In this document: positions 1-32,536 of the stretch, in pieces | Layout of the letters: the number at the start of each line of letters is the position of its first letter | Numbering within the stretch: the stretch's first letter is position 1 | DNA from: Psammoneis japonica | Lineage: Eukaryota | Length of the DNA stretch: 32,536 nucleotides | Reading direction: 5' to 3' | Assembly: GCA_008632985.1 (NCBI GenBank) | Contig: QPGO01000047.1 | Span: 388,608-421,143 of the forward strand | Program-made: the position numbers and the translations under genes | Notes under the pieces: generated by a model | What the model saw: the letters and a program-made list of their open reading frames with translations, nothing else | What the model was told of the DNA's origin: nothing | Databases searched by the model: none

Positions 1-687
1 ATGGCGACAATGCACGCACTGTCCCTTTTTGAATTTGGACGTTGGCTCCTTCCAAGGCTTCTTGACAAGGTCGTCGCGATGGCCCGACAGATCGTCCTCG
101 GTTGATGGTAAAAACGATCCCGCCAAGTGCACACGAATGAGAACAGCCAGTGCCACTGCCAACATGAGACGCAAGAGAAATCCCATGAGGCTGCTGATGT
201 CAAAATTCTTGAAAGCCATGCCGATGTGAAACACGACAACCGCAGCAGTCAAATCGAAGCGCTTCAAGACGGCTGCTGCGCTCGCGAAGTCGAAACGCTT
301 GATGCATTCCTTGGACATGCCAACAACGAGTCCCGTGCACTTCAATGAGATGGTTTTGGACTTGATGGCAACGAAATGGAGTTGGCTCCAGATGGGAGAC
401 CCGATGATGGAGGACCAAATCGATTTGACAGTGACGTTCGGAAACCACTGCTGCTTGATGTGCAAAAAGTCCTCCGTGAGCCCCAACAACCCCTGGCACA
501 ATCCGTAGATAAACGTCGAGAATGTCGTGATAGAAACAACATCGAGATCTTGTAGTAAGGCGCAACAGCCGACCCAAAGAGCAAAACGAAGCCAATCGCT
601 CGCGCTCTTGCGTTGAATCACAACTGCAATCAAGTCACAGTGGCTGACATTGACAACGGCGTTCATAAAGAGGATAGAGGACATCAT
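1..687 (-). pseudogene. Mutated copy (5' part) of the 293-aa membrane/Tudor-like gene
   Basis: ATG at 687 corresponds to 5814 in copy B. The frame runs off the window. Many TpA->TG/CA missense changes, e.g. GQYVYYRH -> GQCVHCRH. Inactivation is inferred, no stop was seen. Confidence 0.7.
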
Positions 688-1105
688 GGTGATGATGGAG
701 ATGCAATGTCTTTGTTGCTTGTACCTTCAAAGAAATTGTGACAGCTTGAATCGATGCCTTTCGAAAGGCGCTCGGACAGTCGTCAGCACAAAGACACGTA
801 GAATGTACGAGGAATCCCGGCAAAAAGAAAGTCTTGGCACCGTTTCACCATATGGTATACTAATATCGGGCTGGATATATGTATTGGCCGAAACCGACCT
901 CTAACATCATGGTCACTACCGGTAAACATGTTCCGACATCATGGTGGTGTGTTGCGATCAATTCGGTTGCTTTTTTTCGACGATTTGAAAGATGATGTTT
1001 GTGTGAGGTCAAGAATGTTCATTTCCTACTTTGTCCTTCCTTCTGCCACGTAATTATGAATTTTCTTTCATTCAATTTCTTTATTTATTACTCTTTCTCT
1101 TCATA
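1..1105. repeat. Copy A of the triplicated ~2 kb unit (left-truncated by window; direct orientation relative to copy B)
   Basis: 1-~993 aligns near-identically to 5128-~6122 (offset 5127). Weaker similarity continues to ~1105. Confidence 0.95.
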
Positions 1106-2726: not shown

Positions 2727-3062
2727 TGTTACTTGCGGTGATCGTCGAAGAATGATTGGTTTTGCAGAAAGGATTCTCCTCTCTTCAACGGATCACGACC
2801 AGCCGCAAAATGTGAGGCGACGTGTCCTTGAAGCGACTCCGAGCAGCTGGGATTGGTATTATCATCTTCACTCATTTAGGTCTATATACTGAATTTTCAT
2901 TGAGTTTGTGACGTAAGCAAAAACTTGAACGGAATTCGGAATTTTGTCATTTTGGATACCGGCAAGATTCAAGATCCAAGATCGAAAAGGCGCGCGAAGC
3001 GTTGAGGTAAAATTTTGGAAAGAAGACTGACAACTGGTGTTCCCTGCAAGTGCGTTTTCACC

Positions 3063-4086: not shown

Positions 4087-6445
4087 TTAGTTGGTCTTTG
4101 TTGTTGATAGCTAGTAGTATAGGGTGGCTACTGCAGTGTCAATCTATTAGGATGGACTATACAGTACTGCTGTTCTTATGCTCGAGACAGACCCCCCGTC
4201 ATTAACAAGAGACTAGTCGCAGCTAAAGGGGGGCGTACTAGTCCGCCGGTAGCAGCGTATCGATCGATTGCGAGTGCAAGCTGTGACACGAACGACAAAT
4301 AGTGCTTTTTATCTAGTTTAAGACAAGACAGAGAAGTGTTGATTAATTTTTCTTGTTTGTTTAATCTTTTTATTGTACAAGACTCTACTCATCTTGATTG
4401 AATGAAACCAAAATAGATTGCCCAACTGAATTAGAATGGCAAAGCGTCTCCTGCAGAGGGAGCAAGAGTTTCTCGTGTTGAATACTTTCCTCGACTTCAA
4501 CTTTCCTTTCTCGATTATTTAACAGCCGCCCCTCTACTTTCAAAAAAGAAGGCACCACCTTCATACCGGTATGAATTTGAGTTTGAGTGCCGCATAGATC
4601 TCTTATTCTCGTTCACATGCTCTGTTCGGAAACAATGACATGTTTCGGAATCAGCTCGAATTAAATGTGCATCCAATACGAGCTTGAATTCAAGACCCAA
4701 TGCAATCAATCAAACTCTCATTCAAAAGTATAAAGATGGCCGCCCTCTGATCTCGACAGTAAAGGCCTTTTCTCGAAAAAAAGAGAGCCCGAGTTGAACA
4801 AAGAATTCAACACGAAAACTCGTCACACCGCATCCACATATGACACTCGGCAATCCTCCCCTGTCGAACATCTCGTTGGAATAATCGTCACAAGATTGCA
4901 CTAACGATATCCCCTTCCCCACATTGAGCACCTTACAATATGTTGCAATCCGGATCGTCGTCAAAGATGTCAATAAAAACCTGAAAGTGACCTGAGCCAA
5001 GCTGGTCCGTAAGGTGGTCCTCGGTCGTCTGTTTCTCGCGTCCGTCGCCCAATTTCACGTCGTAGAACGGGTCAAGGTCATCGTCAAAATGGACCCTTAA
5101 AATCTTTGCTCTCCACGTCTTGTTTGAATGGCGATAATACACGTACTGTCCCTTCTTGAATTTGGACGTTGGCTCCTTCCAAGGCTTCTTGACAAGGTCG
5201 TCGCGATGGCCCGACAGATCGTCCTCGGTTGATGGTAAAAACGATCCCGCCAAGTGCATACGAATGAGAATAGCCAGTGCCACTACCAACATGAGACGCA
5301 AGAGAAATCCCATGAGGCCACTGATATCAAAATTCTTGAAAGCCATGCCGATGTGAAACACGACAACCGCAGCAGTCAAATCGAAGCGCTTCAAGACGGC
5401 TGCTGCGCTCGCGAAGTCGAAACGCTTGATACATTCCTTGGACATGCCAACAACGAGTCCCATACACTTCAATAAGATGGTTTTGGACTTGATGGCAACG
5501 AAATGGAGTTGGCTCCAGATGGGAGACCCGATGATGGAGGACCAAATCGATTTGACAGTAACGTTCGGAAACCACTGCTGCTTGATGTGCAAAAAGTCCT
5601 CCGTGAGCCCCAACAACCCCTGGTACAATCCGTAGATAAACGTCGAGAATATCGTGATAGAAACAACATCGAGATCTTGTAGTAAGGCGCAATAGCCGAC
5701 CCAAAGAATAAAACGAAGCCAATCGCTCGCGCTCTTGCGTTGAATCATAACTGTAATCAAGTCATAGTGGCTGACATTGATAACGGCATTCATAAAGAGG
5801 ATAGAGGACATCATGGTGATGATGGTGATGCAATGTCTTTGTTGCTTGTACCTTCAAAGAAATTGTGACAGCTTGAATCGATGCCTTTCGACAGGCGCTC
5901 GGACAGTCGTCAGTACAAAGACACGTAAAATGTACGAGGAATCCCGGCAAAAAGAAAGTCTTGGCACCGTTTCACCATATGGTATACTAATATCGGGCTG
6001 GATATATGTATTGGCCGAAACCGACCTCTAACATCATGGTCACTACCGGTAAACATGTTCCGACATCATGGTGGTGTGTTGCGATCAATTCGGTTGCTTT
6101 TTTTTCGACGATTTGAAAGATGTTTGTGTGGTTCAGGGAAGTTCAACATTTCCTATTTTGTCTTTTCCTTAGCCACGTATTCTCTATTTAGTAGAGGCTA
6201 TTGTAAAACGATGTCTGTTGTCGTAGGTGGAGCTTTTTATTTAAGACTCTTTCTTCATCCATACACTGCACTGCTGTACTCTAGCTACTACAGTAGTAGC
6301 TAGACCTAACCAACCTCACTAATGTGTGCACGGTACTACTTCTAAGATTTTCAGATTATTATGGAGACTCACGATGGCGATTGCGATCGTTAGTAGCTGT
6401 GCATCGGAGGTATTGATCATAAGTGCTCTGCTGCTCATGGCCGTA
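4081..6445. repeat. Copy B (least mutated) of the triplicated unit. Near-identical core ~4259-6105 with diverged homologous flanks
   Basis: Direct match to 1-1105 and inverted match to 19503-21733. Outer boundaries are approximate. Confidence 0.9.
4933..5814 (-). CDS. Hypothetical membrane protein with C-terminal Tudor/SH3-like beta-barrel
   Basis: Intact 293-aa ORF with hydrophobic segments, then KFKKGQYVYYRHSNKTWRAKILRVHFDDDLDPFYDVKLGDGREKQT, a pattern typical of small SH3-like barrels (fold is inference). Confidence 0.7.
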   Translation of the reverse strand: MMSSILFMNAVINVSHYDLITVMIQRKSASDWLRFILWVGYCALLQDLDVVSITIFSTFIYGLYQGLLGLTEDFLHIKQQWFPNVTVKSIWSSIIGSPIWSQLHFVAIKSKTILLKCMGLVVGMSKECIKRFDFASAAAVLKRFDLTAAVVVFHIGMAFKNFDISGLMGFLLRLMLVVALAILIRMHLAGSFLPSTEDDLSGHRDDLVKKPWKEPTSKFKKGQYVYYRHSNKTWRAKILRVHFDDDLDPFYDVKLGDGREKQTTEDHLTDQLGSGHFQVFIDIFDDDPDCNIL

Positions 6446-11529: not shown

Positions 11530-14500
11530 TAGAAATGGCCGCGACTGCGGCTCCGGCAATTTGCCACAAAGCCAATGCCATGACCAAGGGGGCTGCCAAC
11601 TCCTTCTCGCGGAAAAAAGGACAGCCGCTGCAGCCAGAAGCACAATGCACCATTGCCACCACTATGTTGAGTTCCAGCTCAGTTTGCACAACGTCTCCTC
11701 TAAGAAAAACAAAACCATGTCCAACAACCCTCTTTGCCACGTGGAACTCTGACAGAAAACGAGGCGAGAAAAAAAAAGAGAGAACAAAAGCAGCAGAGAC
11801 GCTCTCATTGACACAACAACGAACATGACTAAAACAGATGATGATGCTAAAGACAAATCACTTGAAACACAACTTTGGAATGCAGACCTTTTGTGCAAGT
11901 TGCCAGACAACAGAGCAGCAACAGGCCATTTTGAGACAATTGCTGAAGACAGTGCTTTCTGTCACTTGTCCCTCTCTTGTGGCCAGTGCACTCCCTGCAG
12001 AGCTCTCTGCTTGGTTGTGTCACAAGAAACAGGAAACCAGACCTCAAGCTGGAGCCTGCATCTGTGAGAAGCCTGGGTGCAAAGCTCCCAATGCAAGAGA
12101 GAGAGAGAGAGAGAGCCACGCAAGAAAAAGAAGGGTGTGGCCGCCGCCCAAGCAATCGAGGCTCACTCTGTGCTCATCAATGTGCGGTGTGACATTGACA
12201 AAAAGAAAGAACAAGGCTGCAGCAGCTTGAGGGTGAGATTGCAGCAGCTCAATCTGACAGCTTGCGATGCACAGAGCTGCTTCTTCATTGGATGGACATG
12301 TCTACACAGCCCAACAAGACATCAGGACAATGTGGCAGATGGGAGCGTGGGTTTCCGCCTCAGCTTCTGAGCGGTGGTGGGGGATGAGGCATCTGTGGGC
12401 TGTGCAAGTTTCATGAGCAGGAAGTCTGTGGAAACTGGGTCATTGTCTTTTGCCACATGAAGCAAGTTGAGCACTAAAAGAAATTCAGAAATGTGTTTCT
12501 TCTGCTGCGGCACTTTTGTTTTTCTTGTGTGTTTTGCTCTTTGTTGTTTTCCAGAAGGGCACACTTGAGTGGCTTTTGCCCTTTTCTCATCATTGTGTTT
12601 TCTGCAATTGCCTGTTCTGCATGCCACAGAAATGCAATTGATGGAAACAACACCAGCATTCTGCCAGCGCCATTGAAGAAAGCTCAAAGTTGACAAGGGC
12701 CAGCAGCTGCTGGGCTCATGAGCTGTGCCAACAAAAAATGCTGCAAAGCTCTCATCTGGTTTGGTGCTGCAAGTCATTGAAGATGACAAAAGAGAGCTCT
12801 GCTTTGCTTGAAGCACAATGAAGTGAGAAACTGCATGGTTGTGGGTGGGCTTCTTTGGGGACATCTGGCACATGGTCAAGGAGACAGCTCACAACAATGG
12901 GTGACTCCCAGGCCAGCTCAAAGTGCTTGTGAATGACCAATGCATTGTGATTGTCTGTGGATGGAAGGGGTGAAGAAGCAAGAGAGACAATGTCAGCACT
13001 GCTCCAGTGCTGTCTCATCTTTGCAAGTGGAGCAGAGAGGAGTGGCCACTCGAGTGCTGCTGTGTCTGCCTCAGTGCTGCTGGAGCAGAGCACAAGAGCA
13101 CACACACCAGTGCTTTGCAAAAATCTCATGGATTTTGGGTTCCATTTGGCAAGCTTGCAAAGAAGAGTGATGCTCTCACAGACACAAACAAACAAGCTCT
13201 GCGGACAAGCACAAATGTGAAAAAATCATTCTTGACAAGAGCCAACAAAGATCACACAGGCAGAAAATCAGACATCAATCTTCTGCAAACACATCATGCA
13301 CACTGGATCTGACTCAAACAATGTCTCAACATCCAGCTCAAAAACAAGTGACATTGCTCAAATGAAGTTGACAGCTGGTTGAAACCAAACAAATCACTCA
13401 ATTTTTAAGTTGGTTTGAACAATTTGCAACTGCAAAAACAACAAAAAAAGACACAGGGAATGACCATCAGGCTGACTGGCTCAGCATCATGCCAAAAAGC
13501 ACATCATTGCCACCAACCAACACACCAAATGCAAAACACAGGATGCTGCCTGGGGCACCCTGTCAATGACGGCATTGTGAGAAAGCAGCAGCAGAGCCAA
13601 AAAAGGACTGTGCACAACCAAACAAAAACAGCAGAGAGAAAAGACAAGAGGTTCTTGGAAATGTGACATGAAATGTGAAAGCAGGCAGCTTTCAGAACAG
13701 TGCAAAAAACTGATGCTTTTGCTTTGACACAACATGAGTTGCACCTGGGGCAAACACCATGGTGCTGCAACATTGCACAAAAGTGGGCAGAAGCATCATC
13801 ATCACCAAACTGTTTCCACACCAAAAACGTGCAAAGCTCATGACTCCCATGCACTCTTCTCTCCCAGCAGGCAAAGCTCTGGTGCCACTCAAATGATGAA
13901 TGTCACACAAAGAATTTGGCATTTGTTGAGTGACAAACAATGGGAGCATGGCACCAAGTGGAGCACAAGCACCAAGACTGGAGCACATGACACAATGCCA
14001 GAATGACCAAGAGAGACAGGGTGCTGTGCAGATGGCAAAAGACCATGGGGGGATGAAAAAAACAACAGAGCAAAGAGAAGAGAGTGGGCGGCAGAGAATG
14101 AAAACATGCAGGAGAGAAAGTTGACATTGCCAGAAACCCAAATTGTGGTGTGCATGGGTCAAATTGTCAGCAGCGTGCAGACAATGCAAAAGGCAATCAA
14201 TGAGATCAATTTGTGCAGTTTTTGTCAGAAATGAACTGTGCACCAGCAATTTGTTGCAGATGCACTGTTGTTGCTCCCAAGAACAAAAGCTGACAAGTCA
14301 CAAGTTTTGTTCATTGGTGCTCCCCACTTTGAGTGTCAATTTGTCGCATCTGCACAAGAAACCACCCACAATGAATTTGTTGCTGACATGTGCAAAATTA
14401 GTTTTGTGAGGGATCACATGCACTGCAAGACCAAATTTCCTTGGACATTGTTTCCCACTTTAAGTTTTCACTCAATTGTCAAAAAAGCCTTGGACCACAC

Positions 14501-15600
14501 CAAAGAAGCACTTGTTGAGAACACATCAATCTTGTCAAGCACAGATCAATTCTGAGTCAGAGCAACAACATTTTCCAGACATGAGACAGCTCTCTCCACA
14601 CAGCTTTGATCCCTTGACTTCCAGATCTTTTTTTTAATGCCACATCTTTCTCCCAGACTCAGAACAAGAGTTGACTCTTCAAAAACCATGGAGGGGGTTG
14701 CCAGCAGCTGGCAACAATGTGGGCAGCAGTGCAGCCAACAGAAGACAAAAAGACTGACACAGAGATGCAAAGTTGATGACTTTGGAAGGCCAGTTTGTGC
14801 CAAAATGGCAAGCCCAAAGAATCCTTTGCACCCTGGGAGGTTGGTGTGTCATGCATTTCCACCTGCATCTGCCAAAAAGAGGATGGTCAGATGACTTGCT
14901 GGCAAGCTGTCCAAGCGCACCGCCTTTGTCATTTGCCATGGTGTCGTGCTGGTGTCGTGCTCTCCCTTGAGCAAGAGGCTCCATTTGCAGAGCATGCAAA
15001 CCAAGAACACAGCTGGACATGGCAACACTGCCAGCCAAGCAACACACCAGCTGACTGCTGCACCCATTGTTTTGGGTGGAAAAGCATGGCCAGGGGGAGA
15101 GCAGCTGGGGCAATGCCCGCTGTTTTGGGCAGAAGCGCAGCCGGGAGAAGAGCAGCTGGACAGCTGGGACAAAGCAGGAAAAGAAAGGTGCTGGATCCTT
15201 TGTGCTCATTCTTGGCTCAGGCAAAAATGGCAGGAGGGGCACCATGCTTTTCCAGAGATCACATGCTGCCCCAGCACAAGTTGGTCACAAAGCATCAACA
15301 AAAAAGAAAGGTGCTGGGTTCAGGCAAAAAAATGGGGGGAGGAGGGGGCACCAAGCTTTTCTGGAGATCACGTGCTGTCCCAGAATGCAAGTCAGTCCAG
15401 ACTTGGTGCTTTCATGCACACTGGAGCTTTTTGCAGAGGGCGCACAAGGCAGGAGGTGTCTTCTGCCCTGCAGCGCTGCACTTTGCCATGGATGAGATGG
15501 GAGCGGAGATTGGATGGGATGCCGCCGTGTTTCGGTCGGGGACGGACACAAGCGGACAGGAGGCATGTTCGCAGTTTTTTGTTTGTGTTGTTGTATCCAC
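11530..15600. other. Heavily mutated block almost devoid of TpA and strongly depleted of CpG. Probable decayed repeat/mobile or duplicated DNA of unknown identity
   Basis: Only 6 TA dinucleotides by manual count in 11881-15540, few CG, large excess of TG/CA. No recognisable domain. Edges are gradual and approximate. Confidence 0.85.
12096..12115. repeat. (AG)10 microsatellite
   Basis: Directly visible. Confidence 0.9.
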
Positions 15601-17044: not shown

Positions 17045-19025
<1,981 letters not shown>

Positions 19026-19502: not shown

Positions 19503-21733
19503 TGATACAGCCATGAGAAGCAGGGCACTTGCAGTATTATCGCAATGCCGCTCTGATGACAGCCGCACCTCATCGATTGATCGCCATCGTGGGGATTATG
19601 ATCAGTATGTATGAAGAAAGAGTTCATAAATAAAAGATCAACCAGCGAAGAAAGACATCGTCAAACAATTGCCTCTACTATATGAAAAATACGTGGCAGA
19701 GGAAAAGACATAATAGGAAATGTTGAACTTTCCTGACCCACACAACATCGATCAAAGCGTCAAAAAGCAACCGAATTGATCGCAACACACCACCATGATG
19801 TCGGAACATGTTTACCGGTAGTGACCATGATGTTAGAGGTCGGTTTCGGCCAATACATATATCCAGCCCGATATTAGTATACCGTATGGTGAAACGGTGC
19901 CAAGACTTTCTTTTTGCCGGGATTCCTCGTACATTCTACGTGTCTTTGTACTGACGACTGTCCGAGCGCCTTTCGAAAGGCATCGATTCAAGCTGTCACA
20001 ATTTCTTTGAAGGTACAAGCAACAAAGACATTGCATCTCCATCATCACCATGATGTCCTCTATCCTCTTTATGAACGCCGTGATCAATGTCAGCCACCAT
20101 GACTTGATTGCAGCTGTGATTCAACGCAAGAGCGCGAGCGATTGGCTTCGTTTTGCTCTTTGGGTCGGCATTGCGCCTTACTACAAGAACTCGATGTTGT
20201 TTCTATCACGATATTCTCAACGTTTATCTATGGATTGTACCAGGGGTTGTTGGGGCTCACGGAGGACTTTTTGCATGTCAAGCAGCAGTGGTTTCCGAAC
20301 GTCACCATCAAATCGATTTGGTCCTCCATCATCGGGTCTCCCATCTGGAGCAAACTCCATTTCGTTGCCATCAAGTCCAAAACCATCTTATTGAAGTGCA
20401 TGGGACTCGTTGTTGGCATGTCCAAGGAACGCATCAAGCGTGTCGACTTTGCGAGCGCAGCAGCCGTCTTGAAGCGCTTCGATTTGACTGCTGCGGTTGT
20501 CGTGTTTCACATCGGCATGGCTTTCAAGAATTTTGATGTCAGCAGCCTCATGGGATTTCTCTTGCGTCTCACATTGGCAGTGACTCTGGCTGTTCTCATT
20601 CGCATGCACTTGGCGGGATCGTTTTTACCATCAACCGAGGACGATCTGTCGGGCCATCGCGACGACCTTGTCAAGAAGCCTTGGAAGGAGAAGGGACAGT
20701 GCGTGTGTTGTCACCATTCAAACAAGACATGGAGAGCAAAGATTTTAAGGGTCCATTTTGACGATGACCTTGACCCGTTCTATGACGTGAAATTGGGCGA
20801 CGGACGCGAGAAGCAGACCACCGAGGACCACCTTACGGACCAGCTCGGCTCAGGTCACTTTCAGGTTTTTATTGACATCTTTGACGACGATCCGGATTGC
20901 AACACATTGTAAGGTGCTCAATGTGGGGAAGGGGATGTCGCCAGTGCAATCTTGTGACGATTGTTCCAACGAGATGTTCGACAGGGGAGGATTGCCGAGT
21001 GTCACATGTGGATGCGGTGTGACGAGTTTGCGTGTTGAATTCTTTGTTCAACTCGGGCTCTCTTTTTTCGAAAAAAAAAAGGCCTTTGCTGTCGAGATCA
21101 GAGGGCGACCATCTTCACACTTTTGAATGAGAGTTTGATTGATTGCATTGGGTCTTGAATTCAAGCTCGCATTGGACACACATTCAATTCGAGCTGATTC
21201 CGAAACATGCCATTGTTTCCGAACAGAGCATGTGAACGAGAACAAGAGATTCATGCGGCAATCAAACTCAAATTCGCACCGGTGTGAAGGTGGTGCCTTC
21301 TTTTTCGAAAGTGGAGGGGCGGCTGTTAAAAAATCGAGAAAGGAAAGTTGAAGTCGAGGAAACTGTTCAACACGAGAAACTCTTGCTCCCTCTGCAAGAG
21401 ACGCTTTGCCATTCTAATTCAGTTGGGCAATCTATTTTGGTTTCATTCAATCAAGATGAGCAGAGTCTTGTGCAATGAAAAGATAAACAAACAAGAAAAT
21501 TTAATCAACACTTCTCTGTCTTGTCTTGAACTAGATGAAAAGCACTGTTTGTCGTTCGTGTCACAGCCTGCACTCGCAATCGATCGATCCAAGGCTGAGG
21601 ACGTCACTGCACAACCGGCGGACTAGTGTGGCACCCTTTAGACTAGCTGCGGACTTGTCTCTTGTTCAGCACAGATTGACAGCAGCCACACTCTGCTGCC
21701 AGTCATCAAGAACAAATGCCAACAAACTGTGCA
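19503..21733. repeat. Copy C (inverted) of the triplicated unit. Core ~19762-21588
   Basis: Reverse-complement match to 4081-6445. Confidence 0.9.
20050..20912 (+). pseudogene. Disabled copy of the 293-aa membrane/Tudor-like gene
   Basis: 1-bp deletion near 20170 (frameshift), 18-bp deletion (PTSKFK lost) and YVYYR -> CVCCH. Confidence 0.9.
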
Positions 21734-21785
21734 GTGTCTCTGGTTGCAGTCAGGCCAAGTAGATCCATTCCACCTGCATGTCCCC

Positions 21786-22985
21786 TTAGATGAAACCACA
21801 AGAGAGCAAACGCCTTAACACTCGAAACATTTCGTGTGGAAGCTGGAAAGAATGCAGCTTGATTGTGAAACTCGAGGCACCAAGAAAGACATTTTCAATG
21901 CACTTTGCACGAATCGCCTTGGAGGCGAGAATTGCAGCAGTTTCTGGTTGATCCAGCACCCAGAGAGCAACGTCGTGGGTCTTTTCTGTCACTGTTTTGG
22001 CCTGCTTTATGTCCACTCCTTTGCTGCGGCAGGCCAAGAGGCCGAATGTCCTTGAAAAGATGTGCCAAGTGTGCATCCTCCGCCTTCTGTTCTGATGCTT
22101 CTTGGAATGAGTGTGCACGGCAAATGGACGTGCTTTTTTCTGCATCGAGCATGTCCGCCATGAGGAGACGTCTCTCTCCAAAGTGCGTTGGAGGCCCTCG
22201 CCCACCAATGCAGAAACATGCGAATGCCATGAGGGCAAAGGGCTTTCCAGCCTCAACAATGGCCGTGCTGGCTTTCCAATCGAAAAAGAAATCATCTCCT
22301 TCCTCTACGTTGTCGTCATGCTTCATGGCAAGTGCAAAGGCCAAGCGAATCAGATTCGAATCTCATCGCTGAGCCACCGTGTTGAACCGTAGTTTGCCAC
22401 ACCAACCATCCGTCAACAAATTAAAGTTGGAAATGTCGAAAGACATCAGAACTCTTTCTCGCATTCCCATGCCAAGAGGCGCTTCGGGTCCCACCAACTT
22501 GAGCGCTTCCTCCCTTCCACGGTCAACTTCTCCTTCAATCTCCTCCACACCTTTCCCAGACGCAATGAGTCGTTTCCCCCTTGACATGATCCATTGCGAC
22601 TTTCGCACTTCCCTGACACGATCAAGGCGAGCTAGAAGTGGAGCGAAAACATCCACTTTCCCCAGCTCCTCGGCAACAGGTCGAAGAGCAAGCCCAGTTG
22701 GCCAAAGGGAGGAGCTCCGATCTGCTTCTGTTGCAAACAAATCAAACCTGCTTCGACCATGTTCACTGCAAAATGCTTCCATGGTTGAAAACGCAGCGAT
22801 GACATCGACCCGATCACACTCAATGACGGGAACCGATCAGTGCGGTTCCCATGATTTCATTGGCATGGCGAAGACACCACTTGCTGCAGCAGTTTGCAGG
22901 ATCCACCGAAAACAACAATGGCGGAGCCTTCCAATGCATCAGAAGCCACATGGCAGCATCAACGCCTCTCGAGCCGACGGATGTG
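21786..22985 (-). pseudogene. Degenerate coding-like sequence of unidentified origin, TpA-depleted
   Basis: Protein-like frames (SVPVIECDRVDVIAAFSTMEAF...; LWVLDQPETAAILASKAIR...) broken by TGA and shifts. Not recognised as the continuation of beta-COP. Confidence 0.4.
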
Positions 22986-23049
22986 TCAAGTAAAAAAAAA
23001 CACGCTTCTTTCCGGAAATGGTTTCAAAGGCCTCCACATCAATTTCCTC

Positions 23050-23790
23050 CGCACAGTGTCCAAGTGTTCACCCAAGATCCAGAGACAAACACATGTTGCA
23101 TTGCTTGAAGAACTGTCGTTGATGAAACCCAACAACTTGGGCAAGATGGATCCTCGCAGTGCGATGCACTGTTCGACAATGGCTCTGACAAAAAGAGCAA
23201 CCTGCACAGAACCATCCGCGGCCAAAAAGTCCATGAGAGCAAAAACAACCGACTCGGCAAAATTGGGAAATCGCACAGCGCATCTGTGAACGGCCCAAAT
23301 CAGCATGTTCTGGCAGGCCATGCTCTTGGCTTCCGCCATGGTGCGACAGAGTCCTGCTCTTGAGCAGTCTCGGCCACAACCTCGCGATTGAGCATCAACA
23401 CAAAAATCAGCAACGTCCATGGCAACATCGAGAACCTTCTCGCAAAAATCAGTGCTGCGGAACCAAGCGTGCGAAGAATGCCCATCAGCAGCTGCAAGAT
23501 CTTGCAATGAAGAGTCTTGAGGTCTTCCAACCGTTCAAGAACAATGAGCTTGACAAGTTTAAGTTTGCACAGGTGGAGCGGCAATGGGTGCCGAAAAAAG
23601 CGACGCTGGAACACAAGCTGCCTCGTAGGACACGGCAGCAGATGTGCTGGAAAGCATTGGAAACGAGATCCGGACAAAATCGTGACTTTTGGGTAGGAAC
23701 ACGACGACACAGCTTGGACCATGACAAAGGCCGCCGCTGGACATTGTCAGCAAATCCATTGAGTTGGCAGACATGATTGAGTTCGGAACT
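23050..23790 (-). pseudogene. COPB1: Internal fragment of coatomer subunit beta (beta-COP)
   Basis: FVRI...MLSSTSAAVSYEAA, VKLIVLERLEDLK..ILQLLMGILRTL, AVHRCAVRFP..AESVV.ALMDFL, FVRAIVEQ and LWILGEH follow the beta-COP trunk order across frameshifts. Confidence 0.85.
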
Positions 23791-24292
23791 TGGCAAACAA
23801 CTCGACGTGATTTTGTGTCATTCACTCGGTGGTGTTGCGTGTTGTTGTTGCAGATGTGGTACGTTCTTGCTTTGCTTGTAATGCCAACAAACTTGAAGAA
23901 GAACGCTCGCTGCTTGCGACGTGCGGGTGTTCCTTGGACAGATGTGGCATTGTGTTTGGCGCCAAGGTTGGTTTGGGATGTGATGCTGTTGCAGTGGCAG
24001 CGCCGCTACAGTGTACTTCATCCAGCTTGTGGCCCGTCACGGACGGTGTGGTGGTGGCAAACCCCAAAAGGCAAAGCGAAAAGCGAAGTCATGGTCGGCT
24101 GTCATCATGGCGAGGAATCGCTGCAGTCGCTTGTTGAAATAATGTACCAATACAGATTCTAATATCTACATTGAAATTCCAAAATCACGTAGAATCACGT
24201 AGAATGGTACTGAACGAAACTGCTGCCGACGTACGAAGGCAGGACACGAGTGCTGTCACCCACGTACCGGAGGTATGTGAATATCCCTGCTT

Positions 24293-24607
24293 ATGCACAC
24301 GAACCACCTGGTGGTCCGTGTGCATTTTTGGGTGCACACGAACCACCTGGTGGTTCGTGTGCACCCTACGCAAAATGCTGCGTAGATTTGTACCGAATAA
24401 ATCTGAGTACTGTAAATCCGACGTAGGATCTACGTGTTTGTACCACCCAACACTTGTCCACCGAGCCGGCAGTCTGTGCCGGCCGTCGTGACAAATATTT
24501 TATGTCAAAGAAAGAGTTCGTCAGGGCCGGCGAACAACACCCCACTACGATGCGACTGGTATAAAATGTACGTAAATGCACAGGAACCAGCATGTGGTTC
24601 GTGTGCA
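24293..24607. repeat. Three copies of a 31-37 bp palindrome (TGCACACGAACCACC-T-GGTGGTTCGTGTGCA)
   Basis: 24293-24325 (one mismatch), 24330-24366 (perfect 18-bp arms) and 24577-24607 (degenerate). Confidence 0.92.
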
Positions 24608-25137
24608 AATTAGAGCTCGTGAAAAATAAGCAGGGATATTAGGGAACTTTTTTTCAGGATCGCCTCGCAGACCCCAAGACCCATATATCGGTGGAAAGCT
24701 CTCGACGAGCTGAACAAGGTCAAACGCATGTTGTATCGGTCGGAGTGAGCGGAAAGCGAATGTTTGTCGTTGAAAATTTGGTATTTATTTAAGGAAAAAT
24801 AACGGTTATATTCGCCTTTTTGTAATTGATTTTTGTATTTATATACAAACATTAGTCGTATCATAAATTTGACATTTAATCCGGAGTTCCGAAATCTCAT
24901 ACAGGATTGTATACTATATAAATTACTTATGGGACACCTTGTTTCTATACTTTGCTCTTGCTCTACAGCTCTGAAAAATGAAGATATCGAAAAAAGGCTT
25001 TCGTCAGTCGCTGCAACTGGGTGTGTTTTAGTGACTGACGAAAGCCGATTTTCGATAAGTATTTTTGGTGTCGAGATTTTTCAATAGCAAAAATACTTCG
25101 CTACTATTTACATACCTCCGGTACGCGCACGCACATC

Positions 25138-26187
25138 ATGGTTTTGCGGAACTTTTTCGCTCGCCGATCACCGAGCAAAATGCGTGTCACGACCATGAGC
25201 AACGCAGCGGCAGAGCCAGCCTCCTCCTCTTCGTCCTCCTCCGGTGATGATTCTTCCGTGTCATTAACCTCCTCAGAGGAATCACCCTCGGCAGTCGCTA
25301 AAATTCGCAGCTTGGAAGACCTTCCGTCAGACGACAGCGTTTCTCTCGACAGTAGTAGCAGCAGCGATGATGATGAAGCGAGCGAGAGTAGCAGTGGCAG
25401 TAGCAGTCAACACGACGAAGAATACGACAATGAAGATGACGTTGAACAGCACATGACTCTGCAGGAACGACTAGAGAAACAGCGCTCAGAAGGTAGTATG
25501 AAGTTAACAAAGGCTTTACACGACAAACGTCGACGAAAAAAGGAGGCGATTGAAAAGGCACGAGAACAACTGCACAAGTCGGACAAGAACCTTGCAGAAA
25601 AGGAGACAAAAACAAAGAAGAGGTCCAAGCATGCTCCAACAGTGGCAAGCTCGTTACGACGTGATTTTTATCAGCGTGGTGCGCCTCTATTGAACTCATC
25701 AGGCATTGGAGTGGAGATTGGAAGCGGAAGATACAAGGCTCGCGATCCGAGATTTAGTTCTGACGGCAACACAAAAGCCACCAATCGTAACTATGAATTT
25801 ATGAAAGAAAAGTATCAAGAAGAAATAAAGAGAGTTAAACAGCGAATTGCGCTTCGAAAATTGACCGGAAGGCGGGGACAGCGACGACGTCAAGCACATC
25901 GAGCTGAATTGCAGCAAACGACGTTGGAGCAAGATGAAGCTACTTTGCAACGATTGATTCAACAGAGAGCGACGCTACAACAGACAGAGTTGCAACAGCA
26001 AGTTCAGAAAGTCGTTCAAGAAAAGTACCACCAGCAGGGTTACTATCCGAAGCGCAACAAAGTGAAACAAATAACGACAGAGCTCAAGTATGAGCAGCTC
26101 AAGCGCAAAGGCGGGCAGAACGCAATCAACAAGGCATTGGCAAAGAAAAGGAAGAAAAACAAAAGCAAAGATGCAAAGCTGTTTTAA
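25138..26187 (+). CDS. RRP36: rRNA biogenesis protein RRP36 (DUF947 family)
   Basis: Acidic Ser-rich N-terminus, then KRSKHAPTVASS, KARDPRF, NYEFM, coiled coil and YYPKR..LKYEQLK..KALAKKRKKNKSKD. The start may be a downstream Met. Confidence 0.85.
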   Translation: MVLRNFFARRSPSKMRVTTMSNAAAEPASSSSSSSGDDSSVSLTSSEESPSAVAKIRSLEDLPSDDSVSLDSSSSSDDDEASESSSGSSSQHDEEYDNEDDVEQHMTLQERLEKQRSEGSMKLTKALHDKRRRKKEAIEKAREQLHKSDKNLAEKETKTKKRSKHAPTVASSLRRDFYQRGAPLLNSSGIGVEIGSGRYKARDPRFSSDGNTKATNRNYEFMKEKYQEEIKRVKQRIALRKLTGRRGQRRRQAHRAELQQTTLEQDEATLQRLIQQRATLQQTELQQQVQKVVQEKYHQQGYYPKRNKVKQITTELKYEQLKRKGGQNAINKALAKKRKKNKSKDAKLF

Positions 26188-27179: not shown

Positions 27180-28169
27180 TCATGTCCGATTCGCGCTTGC
27201 AGTCGCGCAAGACATTCCCGCCATGACAGAAACAGTTCGTCCAACTGCCGCATTACTTCGCAAGGAACCAAGTGCAATGGCGGCTTCTGCTGCGTCCGCA
27301 GCCTCCTTTCTCCTTGAAATTTCATCTTTGTCCATAACTTGATATTGTAAGCTTTCTGATACCAGACCACCAAGGTTCAGATCAGGACGCGAGGTCTCGG
27401 GTGGTGGAGAATTCGAAAACTGTACGCATTGTTGCGTCGGATTAACAGAAGGGGCTACGCCATTGGGGTAATTCAATTGAACAAAACCCGTCATAGGAAT
27501 ATACGATGGCTGTAGATCAGAGTGAGCATATGTCAGAGCAATATATGCGAGAGGGAGAACCGTATATACCTTTCAGCACATGTAACAGACTTTAGACTCA
27601 CCACCACAATGCCATCACATGAGGCAGCTCTCTTCTTTTCTCGGAGAGCGTGAGAACACTTTTGTAGCGCCTTATAAAATCCAACATCCTCATAGACAAA
27701 TCTACCTTTGGCGCCTTTGGATGGACTCTCACACAGAAACCTGCCACCTCTTGCAAGAACCTGATTATGAACTTGCAGTGCAATCGCCTTCTTCTCCTTT
27801 TTAGATTTGGCTCCGGAGTATTCCTCCTTTCTCATTTCGACAAGCCAACGAAAGCGACGATTACCAATGTAGTCATATGCACCCGAGCCTCGGCCAAGCA
27901 AAACGTCATCAGGTCTGATGAACTGATGACTCTGGCGTTCATTGATGCAGGTCAGGTTGCCGATTTCTGTCGTGCTGTGTTGTGCGATTGGAGCCTGAGA
28001 CAAAAGCAAAGTCGATTAGCCATAAAACCGCTAGTAAGATGATGCGTGGAGTCACCAAGCAAGGAAAGAAGAACAGCGAACGTACCTGCTCAAGGGAGAT
28101 TGGTGAAGTTACTTTCGTCTGATTGGGCTTCTTTCGTTCCCGGAGAGCATGTTGGCACTTTCTAAGCGC
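27180..28169 (-). CDS. DUF6824-type diatom protein, 5' part cut off by the Copia insertion. Exons 28169-28086, 27994-27602, 27509-27180
   Basis: DDVLLGRG....IGNRRFR.LV..RKEEY....KKEK..IA..V...GGRFL...KCSHALRE. Two phase-0 GT-AG introns splice in frame. The upstream exon carries the tail of another such domain (ALRKCQHALRE). Confidence 0.8.
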
Positions 28170-28464
28170 TGTGAGTTCGAGTCACGAGTCAACAACCGAG
28201 TCTGATTCACGGATGACGCTTCCGGTCATGGATCTCTTCTTCCGGAAGAAATGTCCGTTGAGTCTTCTAGCGATAGTAATCGGAGTGACACACACGACCG
28301 TTAGGTCATAATGTCATCTCCAATCCCTCGTGAGATCTTCTCACAATTCGTATCTTTAGCGTATCTTATTGTCCCAAAACTGCTTCTTGTCATCCTCTGT
28401 TGTATTGTACAACCTCAAGAGAGTCCTGAACTCTCCATCCTACACAGTGTATTGTTGTGTCCCA
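28170..28464 (+). repeat. Putative 5' LTR (TG...CA)
   Basis: Starts TGTGAG where the DUF6824 motif breaks off and ends CA two bases before a TGG-starting PBS-like site. The second LTR is not in the window, so this is unconfirmed. Confidence 0.5.
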
Positions 28465-28466
28465 AG

Positions 28467-28480
28467 TGGTTACGACCCCA
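28467..28480 (+). promoter_or_regulatory. Putative primer-binding site TGGTTACGACCCCA
   Basis: Position after the LTR-like CA and resemblance to the copia-type GGTTATGGGCCCA site. Cognate tRNA not identified. Confidence 0.45.
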
Positions 28481-28646
28481 ATCCACGCACCGGTGTCAAC
28501 TCGCAACGGAGTTGCTGCCACTCGTTCGTCTCGTTACAGACGACATCCCATCCAACGGCGATCTTCTATGTCGCAATCCAACGGCGATCATCTGTGTCGC
28601 AATCCCCACCTGCTAATCGATCCTCTGTGTCGAATCATCCATAACC

Positions 28647-31112
28647 ATGTCCATGGATCCTGACACCGTCAAGATGTTTGCTGAGGCCTTCACCAAGATG
28701 CAAACCTCGACCAACCCTCCTACGATCCCCACGCCGCTTCGCGGCGGCATCCACCACTCTCATGGAGTGCATCTGGGTGGTTCGGCTCTGAACAACAAGT
28801 GCGAGCAGACCGACACCCGCACCTGCCGTTTTGCCTCGCAACGTCGCCATCCAAAGGCTGTCGACTCTGTCGAGCGATCTCTCAGAGATCAACTCGCTTC
28901 GGCAACCACATCCAAGTTCAACGGCCAGATTGAGTTGTCCAACGGTTCCAGCACTGAACTGGACAAAGACCACTTTGTCAAGACCATTCAGGACTTAATC
29001 GAGTCACACGGACAAGAAACTTTCTACTGTCTCAAGAAAGTCGACGGCAAGGTCGTGTGCCTTTTTGATCATCTTCACGCCTTCACTGTCAAAGACCTTG
29101 AGAAGGAACATGAGACCCGTGTGGCGGCTGCAGGTGACGAAGGCTACGATCAGTGTGAAATCGATGACATCGGCTTGTCACAACTCATCGTCAAGTCACG
29201 CATCACCGAAACCTTCCGTGAAAAGATTGAAACCAAGTTTAATCACTTGAAGAACTGCAAGGATCTTCCGGGGTCTGTCTCATTTATGATGGCTCTGGAC
29301 ACCTGCAACGCCAGTGCTCTGGTTGACGTCAAGGCCGCCAAGGAAAAGTTGAACGACTTAACTCTGGATGACTGCCCTGGCGAAGACTGCACCGAGCTTG
29401 CAACCGAAGCTCTGCGCCTGCTCAAGATCATGCAGACGGACTGTGCGTCACCAGTTGAAACTGGGTCTGCTGTTTTATCTAAGGTGTCAAAGACATCCTC
29501 CGAGTTTTTCAATCGTCAAGTTTTTGCCAAGCTCGACTCCGTCAAGCGCTTGGAGCGCAAATGTCGCTTGCGTGACCCGGCAGAAGTCCCCAAGGATGCC
29601 GACTGTGCGGATCTCGGACCTGTTGGCCTCATTGGCTGGATCACCAAGACCCATGGCGAACTCATTAGCGATGAAGATTGGCCTGCCTTAGCAGCCAAGC
29701 TCCCGGAATCCAACCTCACCAAGGACAACTCGGAAAAGCATTGCTGCGGCTGTGGCAAGGTTGGGTGCACCAAACGCATGTGTCCCACCTGCAAGGAGCA
29801 ATGCAAGAAGGACAAAAAGGGCACGGCAGACAAGTCCAAGGATGACCCTCCGGATGTCCGGAAGACTGACCCTTCCAAGAAACCACCCAAGCCGGCCTGG
29901 CGTTTCGTTCACAAAGGTGCCACTGTCACCGACGAGAAAGGCACGACCTGGCACTGGTGCGACAAGTGTGTGAACAAGGAAACGGGCAAGAAGGGCATGC
30001 ATCAAGGCCACTCCTCCGCTCAACACACCGGGAAACCGTCTGTCAACACCGAAACCACCGCTGCGGCAAATTTATCTGCTGTGTCGGACCCCTCTTCGGG
30101 CATTCCTTTTGGTCCTCCCAAGCAGACGACGTCTCCGCCTACAGACGAACCCTCTGACCCTAACGAGCTGGTTTATTGCGGCATGTGGTGTGCACCTGTG
30201 GACGACTCTTTGGGTTCGACTCCAGTGACTACGACCGTCTCGTTCACTCCTGCTCCATCGGCCGAGAGGGAGACTGCCGTGGCCAAACCCGCTCCCATCT
30301 TGGTTGAAACGGTTGACCCCGAAGACGCTGACGATTGCTCTGAGTGCTCCAACGCTCACTCCTCTTTTGACTCCCTGCCGTCAGCTGTCGAGCTGTTTCC
30401 GGCCTGTGCCATGCATGAGATTCAAAATCCGGACGTGTTTTATGACACGATCGCAACTCACGTGGAAGGTCTGTCCGACGATGTGTTAGACGATCTCGTT
30501 TCCGGGGCAAGCATCCCACCTTTCGAAGACAGCTGCGAGCACTTACCTCCAAGCACCCAGCATCGCGGTTTCGAATTTTACGATCCCGAACCCCAAGATG
30601 TTGATTGTGGCATCGAGGAGGCAACGCCGAGCTCTCGTCTTGAGCTTTTCTGGAACTTCTTGAAGCTCCGAGTTTTCTGGCTGTTTGCTGTGTTCTGGGA
30701 AACGGCACTGCACATTTGCTGTGCGCCGATTCCTGTCTTACCTCGTCGTGTGCGCCGCAAGGCATTCATCCCAACCATTCACGGTTTCCCCTCTACCTGG
30801 ATGGTGCTGACTGGAGCTGTCATGGTCTGGGCATCTGTTTTCAACGGTCAGCTTCCCACGCATCCATTCTCCAATGTCCCCTCTCGCTTCTCCAAAGCCA
30901 GCTCTCAGGTCTGCTCGATCATTGAAGAACTGGACGATGAGACAGTGTTAGATCCGGGCAGTTTGGTGGAATGCAACAAGATCAAGGCGCGACAAGTGCT
31001 TGCCGAATTTGTGGAGCGCGATCCGGACCATTGTCTGAGCAAGAAATTCACGCAGCTCTGGGAGAACGACGCATGCTCTTCCCTAGGCCGCTGCATCCCT
31101 CCAGCTCTATAA
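28647..31112 (+). CDS. gag: Copia Gag-like ORF with long C-terminal extension, Tyr-depleted
   Basis: 821-aa ORF with CCGCGKVGC..MCPTC and WHWCDKC...H.GHSSAQH motifs. About 35 Cys versus 5 Tyr by my count. Confidence 0.8.
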   Translation: MSMDPDTVKMFAEAFTKMQTSTNPPTIPTPLRGGIHHSHGVHLGGSALNNKCEQTDTRTCRFASQRRHPKAVDSVERSLRDQLASATTSKFNGQIELSNGSSTELDKDHFVKTIQDLIESHGQETFYCLKKVDGKVVCLFDHLHAFTVKDLEKEHETRVAAAGDEGYDQCEIDDIGLSQLIVKSRITETFREKIETKFNHLKNCKDLPGSVSFMMALDTCNASALVDVKAAKEKLNDLTLDDCPGEDCTELATEALRLLKIMQTDCASPVETGSAVLSKVSKTSSEFFNRQVFAKLDSVKRLERKCRLRDPAEVPKDADCADLGPVGLIGWITKTHGELISDEDWPALAAKLPESNLTKDNSEKHCCGCGKVGCTKRMCPTCKEQCKKDKKGTADKSKDDPPDVRKTDPSKKPPKPAWRFVHKGATVTDEKGTTWHWCDKCVNKETGKKGMHQGHSSAQHTGKPSVNTETTAAANLSAVSDPSSGIPFGPPKQTTSPPTDEPSDPNELVYCGMWCAPVDDSLGSTPVTTTVSFTPAPSAERETAVAKPAPILVETVDPEDADDCSECSNAHSSFDSLPSAVELFPACAMHEIQNPDVFYDTIATHVEGLSDDVLDDLVSGASIPPFEDSCEHLPPSTQHRGFEFYDPEPQDVDCGIEEATPSSRLELFWNFLKLRVFWLFAVFWETALHICCAPIPVLPRRVRRKAFIPTIHGFPSTWMVLTGAVMVWASVFNGQLPTHPFSNVPSRFSKASSQVCSIIEELDDETVLDPGSLVECNKIKARQVLAEFVERDPDHCLSKKFTQLWENDACSSLGRCIPPAL

Positions 31113-32536
31113 GACCTCGAGTCCTGCTTCGACACCTGTGATTCAGAGGAAGCCCTCGGCCCGCTCCCGAACGAGCCGAGCCACTACTTTGACACGGTTG
31201 AGGAGCTCTCTCCGGACTATTTTCGTTTCGACGAGCTGTCCACCAAGTTTGGTTTCGTGGACACCACTCCATGGCAAGACCCTGTGAAGCTTCTCCAGGC
31301 AGCCACTGACGGAACCGAAGCCTGTCCTGCTCATACCTCTGTGCAGGTGTTGACAGGCCAACGTTCTTTAGCACAACTCGCCGCCGACCTGCAAGCTTTG
31401 CTGAGCCTGGCACATGAGTGCCACACCGTCACATGCGATGCTGGCGCATCCTCAGCCATTGCTTGCGATGAAAACGACTTTGTCGGACCTCCAACGATCC
31501 CTGATGGCCCGTTGAAGCTTGGGGGTCTAGCAAATGGCTTAACCATCGCCGGCATCGGACCCGTCTCCTGGGTTTTCCATGACGAGGACGGCTCTGAGCT
31601 CGTCGTCAAGACGATGGCGTGCCATGCACCTCAGGCCGGACAACGTCTTCTATCCCCACAACGCCTCTACAGCAAGGAACATGGCATGACAGGAAAATGT
31701 GAGGGAGACGAGGACTCATTTCGAGTGCATGTTGATGGCGCCGGTTCGCTCAAGGTCGCGCACGCGTCAAATCACTTGCCGGTTGCGTCTGTGACCAACG
31801 GGGTGGCACCCGCTCCTCAAGTCAATCTGTCTGTGTTGCACGAGGACAACCAGAACCTCACCACCGGTCAGAAGCTCCTTCAAGAATGGCACTTCAGGTT
31901 TGGTCACCTGAACATGCCACGCATCCAAGGCCTGCTTCGGGCCGAACCTTTTCTCCGACCCAAATTCAAGCATGCTTCGCGTTGCGACATTCCGCGGTGC
32001 GAGGTGTGCGAACATGCCAAAGGACATCGCCGAACCCTCAAGTCTGCCAAACATGCGGCTACTCCAGAGCGTGAGGGTGCTCTTCGAGCCGAGCATCTAC
32101 GTCCAGGCCAAGCCGTCAGCGTGGATCACTTCGAATCCCGTCTCCTCGGCCGAACCTACGACTCCTGCGGGAAGGCCTCGTCCCAGCAATACAAAGGAGG
32201 CTGCATTTTTGTGGATCATGCCTCCGGTTACCCACATGTTGAACACCAACTTGGTTTCTCTGCTGTGGAAATGGTGCGAGCGAAGCAAGCGTTTGAAAAG
32301 CACGCGATGGACCACGGCATCATCATCCAAGAATTTCTTGCCGATTCTGGCGCTTTCAAGGCCAACACTTTTGTGCAATACATGCGACAGCACGAACAAC
32401 GTCTCCGTTTTTGCGGAACCAACGCCCACCATCAGAATGGCGTCGCAGAACGCGGCATTCGCTCCGTCTCCAACATGGCGAGAGCGATGCTCCTCCACGC
32501 ATCCATCCGTTGGAAGGGGGGCACAGACAGCTCTTT
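31113..32536 (+). CDS. pol: Copia pol region (protease, GAG-pre-integrase, integrase core), same frame as gag after one TAA, runs off window
   Basis: VTCDAGASS (protease), RLLSPQ, LQEWHFRFGHLN...CEVC, PGQAVSVDHF, CIFVDHASG, ADSGAF and AHHQNGVAERGIR. Missing from the ORF track because it has no stop before the window end. Confidence 0.92.

Follow-up and report, generated by a model that had tools for sequence, protein, structure and literature searches.

What has removed most of the TpA dinucleotides from a Ty1/Copia retrotransposon of the diatom Psammoneis japonica and left its CpG, and does the same process account for a protease motif that appears edited? The retrotransposon lies at 28647-32536 of a 32,536-base stretch of contig QPGO01000047.1 (assembly GCA_008632985.1, positions 388,608 to 421,143, forward strand), which we call the window. 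Judged by its reading frames and protein matches, it is the gag, protease and integrase portion of a Ty1/Copia element. An earlier note on this element had described the loss of TpA, read several protein motifs as mutated, and proposed that missense load disables such elements. We consider it likely that a DNA process targeted to particular loci, which converts TA to TG or CA, struck this copy. Beyond what the earlier note had described, the process also struck DNA in the same window which is not Copia. It is a new occurrence of a recently described type of hypermutation, found in a different eukaryotic lineage and in a different class of target.

In the element 40 TA were observed where 195.4 are expected (observed/expected 0.20), together with 263 CG where 293.8 are expected (0.90), TG at 1.35 and CA at 1.21, so the body is CpG-rich and TA-poor, as the earlier note had described. 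Outside the depleted blocks the window has 896 of 1428 expected TA (0.63), and given the 122.6 TA expected at this background ratio, the Poisson probability of finding 40 or fewer in the element is 4e-18. The observed/expected ratios of TA by codon phase are 0.10, 0.42 and 0.19 in gag and 0.27, 0.26 and 0.11 in pol, compared to 0.29-0.76 in four host open reading frames (ORFs) of the window. At the protein level, gag (28647-31109) has 35 Cys and 5 Tyr, exactly as had been estimated, the pol fragment retains 7 Tyr, and the codons ATA and GTA are both absent (0 each) from the 1295 codons of gag and pol. The 1296-codon gag-pol frame contains one stop, compared to 25 to 51 in each of the five other frames. 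Since a change from TA to TG or CA turns TAA into TGA at most and removes TAG and TAA, the process makes no stops, and the claim that it acts without creating them holds.

The direction of the change can be read from three copies of a segment unrelated to Copia, which self-BLAST found in the same window with 92-95.5% identity. Copy I is 95.5% identical to 5128-6179 of copy II, and copy III is 91.9% identical to copy II (4204-6264) over 2089 bases. Copy II has TA ratios of 0.45-0.92 in the 500-base windows covering it. A TA of copy II is replaced by TG or CA at 21 sites in copy I and at 40 sites in copy III; the reverse was found at none, giving a total of 61 changes from TA to TG or CA and 0 in the opposite direction. 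Copy III has TA where copy I has TG or CA at four further sites, again with none in reverse. In the depleted parts of copies I and III, 45 of the 63 copy II TA sites are changed, 15 are kept and three are different in another way, and the products of the 45 changes are 23 TG and 22 CA. The depleted part of copy III accounts for 33 changed sites out of 50. The partly mutated flanks are less affected, with 8 of 31 TA sites changed in copy I and 5 of 39 in copy III. The effect on the protein is visible in the stretch KKGQYVYYRHS of the copy II ORF, which reads KGQCVCCHHS in copy III.

When the kilobase common to all three copies is aligned, eight sites with TA in copy II have the same product in copies I and III, three have TG in one copy and CA in the other, and four are changed in copy I only. 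The three discordant sites indicate that TA is ancestral, and together with the four sites changed in copy I only they show that hits continued after copies I and III separated. Copy II was spared, which supports a process directed to particular loci and not to sequence similarity as such.

The same direction was found when the pol fragment was compared with its protein family. Among 1.84 billion representative proteins, 4456 match the fragment at E<=1e-3 and 430 at E<=1e-30, and the family alignment was built with phmmer from the fragment and 150 listed representative hits (171 rows). The protease site reads GTC ACA TGC GAT GCT GGC, that is V-T-C-D-A-G, at 31428-31445 with the Asp at 31437, exactly as noted before. 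In the relatives the column of T107 has I in 73 and V in 28 of 109 sequences, that of A110 has T in 68 and S in 43 of 115, and the neighbouring Asp and Gly are nearly fixed (113 and 114 of 115), so this copy, with D-A-G, is without the family motif D-[ST]-G. Two parts of the earlier proposal that the site was once V-I-Y-D-T-G therefore stand, as T107 to I and A110 to T both move towards the family consensus. All of the proposed reversion of A-C-H-A-P to A-Y-Y-V-P is borne out, since C170 to Y, H171 to Y and A172 to V each move to the consensus (A in 76, Y in 66, Y in 74 and V in 89 of 124 relatives, followed by P in 116 of 125). For G-Y-P-H-V the change of P374 to L is supported, with I in 61, V in 45 and L in 14 of 137 relatives. 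The DAG motif and the Cys and His residues of A-C-H-A-P are thus not those of the family consensus, which has D-[TS]-G and A-Y-Y-V-P.

We generalised this comparison by changing each base of the aligned codons singly to its transition partner and scoring the new residue against the family columns, where a gain of more than 2 bits at a nonsynonymous site was counted as an improvement. Reversal of TG or CA to TA improved the fit at 13 of 101 nonsynonymous sites, reversal of TG or CA to CG at 5 of 121, other G/C to A/T reversals at 2 of 282 and other A/T to G/C reversals at 4 of 206. The enrichment for TA is strong against all other transitions (13/101 versus 11/609, Fisher odds ratio 8.0, p 3e-6) and is also present when TA and CG reversals of the same dinucleotides are compared (odds ratio 3.4, p 0.025). 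The individual gains include +8.1 bits for T to I at 31432, +7.7 for A to T at 31440 and +5.1 for P to L at 32233, and the fit also improved by reversals at 31621, 31623 and 31627 in A-C-H-A-P. Counting every reversal in pol with a gain of more than 1 bit gives 18, of which 10 are of the TG type and 8 of the CA type.

For Cys or His at columns with a Tyr consensus, this copy ranks second among 175 aligned relatives. First is the 1423 aa protein P0054, with 0 Tyr at six such columns and Cys or His at four of the six. P0054 and two further pol relatives, P0070 and P0100, are nearly free of Tyr (0-0.8%), and the Cys and His of P0054 point to such a process in further hosts or copies.

The changed sites also have a preferred context. 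Counting the copy II TA sites on both strands, adenines followed by a pyrimidine are mutated in 34 of 76 cases and those followed by a purine in 11 of 50 (p 0.013), with TAT changed at 18 of 40 sites and TAC at 16 of 36. Four RTAY (R, purine; Y, pyrimidine) survive in the 12,374 depleted bases, compared to 292 in 20,162 background bases, and for YTAR these numbers are 35 and 152. The target TA is palindromic and the two products are equally frequent, indicating that the substrate is DNA, or both strands of some duplex, and not the sense RNA.

The composition, the direction and TpA specificity of the changes, their equal products, the context bias and the block structure are what we observe, and a mechanism can be proposed for them. 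An A:T to G:C transition would occur at the adenine of either strand in the palindromic 5'-TA-3', most strongly at TAY. TA is contained in the Tyr codons (TAY), in ATA, GTA, CTA and TTA and in the codon junctions NNT-ANN, so the proteins would acquire a missense load of Tyr to Cys or His, Ile to Thr or Met, Val to Ala, Leu to Pro or Ser and Thr to Ala changes. Stops would be erased and the frame would stay open, and the protease active site (DTG to DAG) would be lost together with other conserved residues. Such a missense load would disable the element, as had been suggested, and this copy is presumably dead. The agent may be a DNA adenine deaminase that turns A into inosine, which is read as G, as proposed for the chlorarachniophyte alga Bigelowiella natans, and the process may be a host defence.

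Depletion is not spread evenly over the window. It is confined to four blocks, which we named A to D (Table 1), with the Copia element in block D. Three of the blocks keep CpG at 0.81-0.96 and block B lost both dinucleotides, showing that TpA and CpG loss are separable and confirming that the loss of TpA is not a by-product of CpG decay. The blocks have no sharp edges, and the depletion fades over a few hundred bases. In both units of known orientation it sets in near the 5' end and runs downstream, beginning at about the gag start in the element and, in copy III, about 190 bases after its ORF starts. Where copies I and III are partly mutated (506-1055 and 19605-20239), CA outnumbers TG as the product of TA when the sequence is read as in copy II (7 vs 1 and 4 vs 1). 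A strand bias where the domain ends may explain this excess; the counts are low and some of the events are common to both copies.

Table 1. Coordinates of the depleted blocks, the Copia element and other features of the window (o/e, observed/expected).
Feature	Position	Strand	Remarks
Block A	1-505		TA o/e 0.04 (1/28.2); CpG o/e 0.96
Block B	11540-15590		TA 10/264.9 = 0.04; CG 49/234.1 = 0.21; TG 1.84, CA 1.73
Block C	20240-24000		TA 30/237.6 = 0.13; CG 0.81; includes part of copy III
Block D	28480 to window end		TA o/e 0.22; CpG o/e 0.91; contains the Copia element
Paralog copy I	1..1052	+	1-505 almost TA-free; 506-1052 partly mutated
Paralog copy II	4204..6264	-	unmutated; 293-aa ORF at 4933-5814, minus strand
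Paralog copy III	19605..21666	+	inverted relative to copy II; TA-depleted from ~20240
Putative 5' long terminal repeat (LTR) and leader	28010..28479	+	contig depth jump; TA not depleted; boundaries approximate
gag ORF	28647..31112	+	821 aa; ends with TAA at 31110-31112, in frame with pol
pol fragment, protease then integrase	31113..32534	+	truncated by the window end
Protease active-site stretch T-C-D-A-G	31431..31445	+	relatives [IV]-x-D-[TS]-G
A-C-H-A-P	31617..31631	+	family consensus A-Y-Y-V-P
G-Y-P-H-V, integrase core	32226..32240	+	P374 likely mutated (consensus I/V/L); H375 = consensus
DHX15/PRP43 helicase fragment	17045-17566	-	named relatives mostly diatoms, ~69-75%; best unnamed relative 81%
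Coatomer-beta-like fragment	22986..23534	-	Adaptin_N E 4e-12; PDB coatomer beta E 1.5e-7

Other copies of the element were found in the DNA sequencing run X1, which contains 55% of the sampled words of the element. Its contigs match the single-copy parts of the window with 0-1 differences, which indicates the same or a very close strain. The variants listed from this run are 40 of 995 rows, six of them within the element. At 29028-29029 the window has TG and all six X1 contigs covering the site have CA, and at 29058-29059 TG is likewise replaced by CA in two of two contigs. Such a pattern is expected if one ancestral TA was hit independently on its two strands in different copies. A TA of the window at 32379 is CA in seven of seven contigs, and a CG at 29615 is TG in other copies. 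Over the whole run the two directions are about equally frequent (153 A>G and 135 T>C versus 150 G>A and 123 C>T), a tally that is uninformative without the dinucleotide context. X1 contigs also reproduce the TA-free stretches 13693-14536 and 14512-15207 with 0 other letters, which rules out a sequencing artefact at modified bases.

To our knowledge, all eukaryotic hypermutation defences known before the 2026 B. natans preprint (repeat-induced point mutation (RIP), APOBEC and AID) act on cytosine. In 15 mutation-accumulation lines of B. natans, 231 of 302 nuclear mutations fell into integrated giant-virus and virophage regions; 230 of these were A>G or T>C changes, each located at a TpA and leading to TpG or CpA (bioRxiv 10.64898/2026.01.13.699255, Mettrop et al.). 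According to the text of the same preprint, the rates are about a thousand times the genomic rate, the mutations occur in only some lines, the genome has 124 TpA-depleted clusters enriched in CpA and TpG, and its TpA-poor coding sequences are enriched in reverse-transcriptase and DDE-endonuclease domains; the authors propose an ADAT2-like DNA adenine deaminase (bioRxiv 10.64898/2026.01.13.699255). The window shares with B. natans the TpA to TpG or CpA changes (61 vs 0 between the paralogs), which run against the usual GC-to-AT bias, the presence of both products (23 TG and 22 CA; 10 and 8 in pol) and the discrete TpA-depleted and CpA- and TpG-enriched regions. As far as sequences can be compared, the signature is the same in every respect testable. 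The differences concern the host, which is a diatom (Stramenopila) here and a chlorarachniophyte (Rhizaria) there, and the targets, which are giant-virus and virophage insertions in B. natans and a Copia element, a duplicated host-like segment and a block of unassigned origin in the window. Moreover, the process was caught live in B. natans, whereas we see fixed differences alone. The TAY preference and the spared paralog come from this window; a term search of the preprint text found no mention of flanking context, diatoms or retrotransposons, and its supplements may hold context data. Our literature search, which included two papers on diatom transposons (PMC2806351 and bioRxiv 10.1101/2025.10.24.684338), found no report of TpA-directed hypermutation in diatoms or in LTR retrotransposons.

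Of the alternatives to a locus-targeted DNA process, the decay of a modified base survives best, and we still regard it as unlikely. It would need a symmetric TpA mark in silenced DNA, for instance on adenine or thymine, which mispairs or deaminates as methylated CpG does, with no dedicated mutator. We know of no TpA modification in diatoms. Decay of this kind is consistent with the palindromic target, the equal products (23 vs 22) and the discrete blocks, as well as with the additional loss of CpG in block B, as expected of long-silenced DNA. The pace of the change argues against it: in bases 1-505 of copy I, 12 of the 13 copy II TA sites are changed, and these 12 stand among only 16 differences in total, four of them of other kinds, a rate that resembles an active process. 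Furthermore, the B. natans mutations arose in bursts and in some lines only (bioRxiv 10.64898/2026.01.13.699255).

Slightly less probable still is a process triggered by homology in the manner of RIP, in which repeats would be recognised by their similarity and every copy mutated, with TpA in place of CpA as the target in this case. All four depleted blocks do have more than one copy. RIP has a length threshold, and such a threshold would fit the escape of short repeats such as the putative LTR (~470 bases) and 24230-25442 (1.2 kb). With fungal RIP the window shares dense transitions at one dinucleotide on both strands and a missense load that would wreck mobile elements. However, RIP changes CpA to TpA (C to T), so that TpA is gained there and lost here. 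RIP also creates stops and affects every copy of a duplication, whereas stops are erased here and copy II, 92-95% identical over 1-2 kb and ~14 kb from a mutated copy, has 0 of the 61 changes. The putative LTR, the most repeated part of the Copia element, is unaffected as well. The main hypermutated region of B. natans occurs in a single copy and is silent, and copy number does not explain the targeting (bioRxiv 10.64898/2026.01.13.699255).

We give very little credence to RNA editing fixed by reverse transcription, in which an ADAR- or ADAT-like enzyme would convert A to I in the element RNA before insertion. ADAR favours a 3' G, which is the least mutated context here (2 of 19 adenines before G), and the equal products also differ from ADAR-type hyperediting. 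The element does replicate via RNA, and known RNA adenosine deaminases are described as preferring a 5' U (PMC11472039, PMC11087585). An adenine preceded by U or T is indeed common to the window and to tRNA adenosine deaminases that act on DNA or mRNA, namely amphioxus ADAT2 (PMC10354150), bacterial TadA (PMC11472039) and fungal Tad2-Tad3 (PMC11087585). The TadA core motif is given as UACG (PMC11472039) and shares the TAC favoured here, but TAT is changed as often as TAC in the window. Fungal Tad2-Tad3 is reported to prefer UAG (PMC11087585), and TAG is the least changed here. Editing of the RNA should leave A>G on the sense strand alone, but the pol reversals split into the TG and CA types. 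Moreover, the same signature is present in copies I and III, which have no retroelement features, and the hits there continued after these copies separated. A host deaminase hypermutating retroelement DNA, with edited copies that persist in the genome, is known from APOBEC3, which deaminates cytosine in minus-strand cDNA and leaves G>A on the plus strand only (PMC4866542). Unlike there, adenine positions on both strands and DNA other than retroelements are affected in the window.

Finally, an intrinsic composition can be practically dismissed. In this reading codon usage or a selection acting against UA would make the family TA-poor, and its normal residues would include DAG, Cys and His. TA is under-represented in the non-depleted window (0.63) and in the metagenomic relative L001 of the element (0.36-0.57), but the nonsynonymous phase of the Tyr codons is as depleted as the codon junctions, the changed residues are conserved in the 4456 relatives, other copies have CA where the window has TG, and the paralogs changed in one way.

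Several points weigh against our reading of a locus-targeted DNA process. Two of the reversions proposed in the earlier note do not lead to the family consensus: the column of C108 has F, W, I or V in the relatives and not Y, and H375 is the consensus itself (H in 62 of 137), so that not every TG or CA is a former TA. Tyr is kept at some pol columns such as Y360, as would be expected if some purifying selection had acted during the process. Despite the highest contig depth, 21 TA are present in the putative LTR and leader (28010-28479) where 33.0 are expected (0.64); conjecturally, these parts were spared by a length threshold or by a domain that starts downstream of the promoter. The preference for the 3' neighbour is based on 45 events. 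Part of the TA loss may be inherited from an already depleted master lineage and may not have happened after insertion. That the mechanism is the same as in the rhizarian B. natans is assumed from the signature. The whole case is made from fixed differences, and we saw neither an enzyme nor a modified base nor a new mutation.

The identity of the element is based on several lines of evidence. Its features were compared with those of Ty1/Copia elements of the CoDi-like lineage of diatoms. Gag, a protease of the retroviral type and integrase follow each other in the order of Copia, and the window ends before the reverse transcriptase and RNase H. The HHCC and DDE columns of the integrase are kept (H260, H265, C296, C299, D338, D411 and E446) and are nearly invariant in the relatives. 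Of the Pfam families only gag_pre-integrs was found on the element, with 23.7 bits and below the cut-off of 28.4. Among the closest protein relatives none is more than 71% identical over a part of the query or more than 58% over most of it. A metagenome scan confirmed one relative, L001, among 99 matched stretches. Its pol is 54% identical to that of the element, forms an open ORF of 1392 aa with protease, integrase and then a YVDD reverse transcriptase, which is the Copia order, and carries DTG. The L001 gag matches the C-terminal part of the element gag with 24% identity over 356 aa (tblastn, E 4e-17). No similarity to Copia was found in the window outside the element in a tblastn search with 11 Copia proteins, and no RNA dataset was listed as containing the element.

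The start of the repeat is marked by the summed contig depth, which jumps from 87 (27211-27877) to 4205 (27878-28544), at about 27878, and is ~1800-4200 across the element compared to 56-300 across the flanking genes. The 3' LTR lies beyond the window, so the putative 5' LTR was placed by this depth and not by an LTR alignment. Just upstream of the gag start the leader (28553-28640) has a unit of about 26 bases (atccaacggcgatc.tct.tgtcgca) in two tandem copies and a degenerate third. At the boundary of gag and pol (31108-31112) a single in-frame TAA lies within CTATAA, where two of the rare remaining TAs are found; L001 differs here, with overlapping ORFs in different frames. The in-frame TAA could either be read through or be a secondary mutation.

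The remaining blocks contain few known domains. Of 75 stop-to-stop ORFs from blocks A, B and C compared with Pfam, only an Adaptin_N fragment scored above the cut-off, and none of the 47 scanned ORFs of block B reached the curated Pfam cut-off. Block B is complex, non-repetitive sequence in which both TpA and CpG are lost, and its long ORFs on both strands are due to the absence of TAA and TAG. X1 contigs show diverged second copies of it. The Adaptin_N fragment in block C resembles coatomer beta and reads LWILGEH where solved coatomer chains have LWILGEY. The variant places listed for block C are covered by 5-13 X1 contigs each. Contigs of run X1 and of a further run, X2, contain diverged versions of the coatomer-beta fragment, and a separate, presumably functional coatomer-beta gene is probably present elsewhere in the genome. 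For the 293-aa ORF of copy II no Pfam family was found; its N-terminal half is hydrophobic, and the C-terminal stretch KKGQYVYYRHSNKTWRAKILRV... gave us the impression of a Tudor/SH3-like fold.

Between blocks C and D, some contigs of X1 and X2 skip ~1.2 kb at 24230-25442, where the contig depth is very high, TA is normal and short palindromes lie at 24294-24366. This could be either an insertion polymorphism or a mobile element. The best named relatives of the helicase fragment are from Fragilaria, Ditylum, Attheya, Cylindrotheca, Entomoneis, Nitzschia, Pseudo-nitzschia and Chaetoceros, and beyond these the 120 rows listed name just one organism, in a nematode entry (50%). A signal-peptide-peptidase ORF in the window has its best named match in Seminavis (36%). 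The database contains no protein that is nearly identical.

A TpA-specific process of the adenine type had previously been seen once, in one rhizarian alga and on viral insertions. The window of P. japonica indicates that it is not confined to one lineage, and it may shape the evolution of repeats in major marine primary producers. For genome annotation it means that hypermutated elements retain long ORFs on several strands, contain many Cys and His and few Tyr, and escape the family models. The TAY preference, the equality of the strands and the spared paralog narrow the search for the enzyme and for the targeting signal, and if the process exists in genetically tractable diatoms, the question is open to experiment. 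More tentatively, and with the odds in our view against it, the two cases could go back to an old DNA adenine-editing defence of diatoms and chlorarachniophytes, possibly common to Stramenopila, Alveolata and Rhizaria (SAR), which would choose its loci by chromatin or transcription and not by homology, edit TAY on both strands and set in a few hundred bases after the start of the transcription unit, like the somatic hypermutation of AID. If this is true, it would be the first natural mutator known to change A to G symmetrically in double-stranded DNA in the service of genome defence, and natural adenine base editors could be drawn from it.

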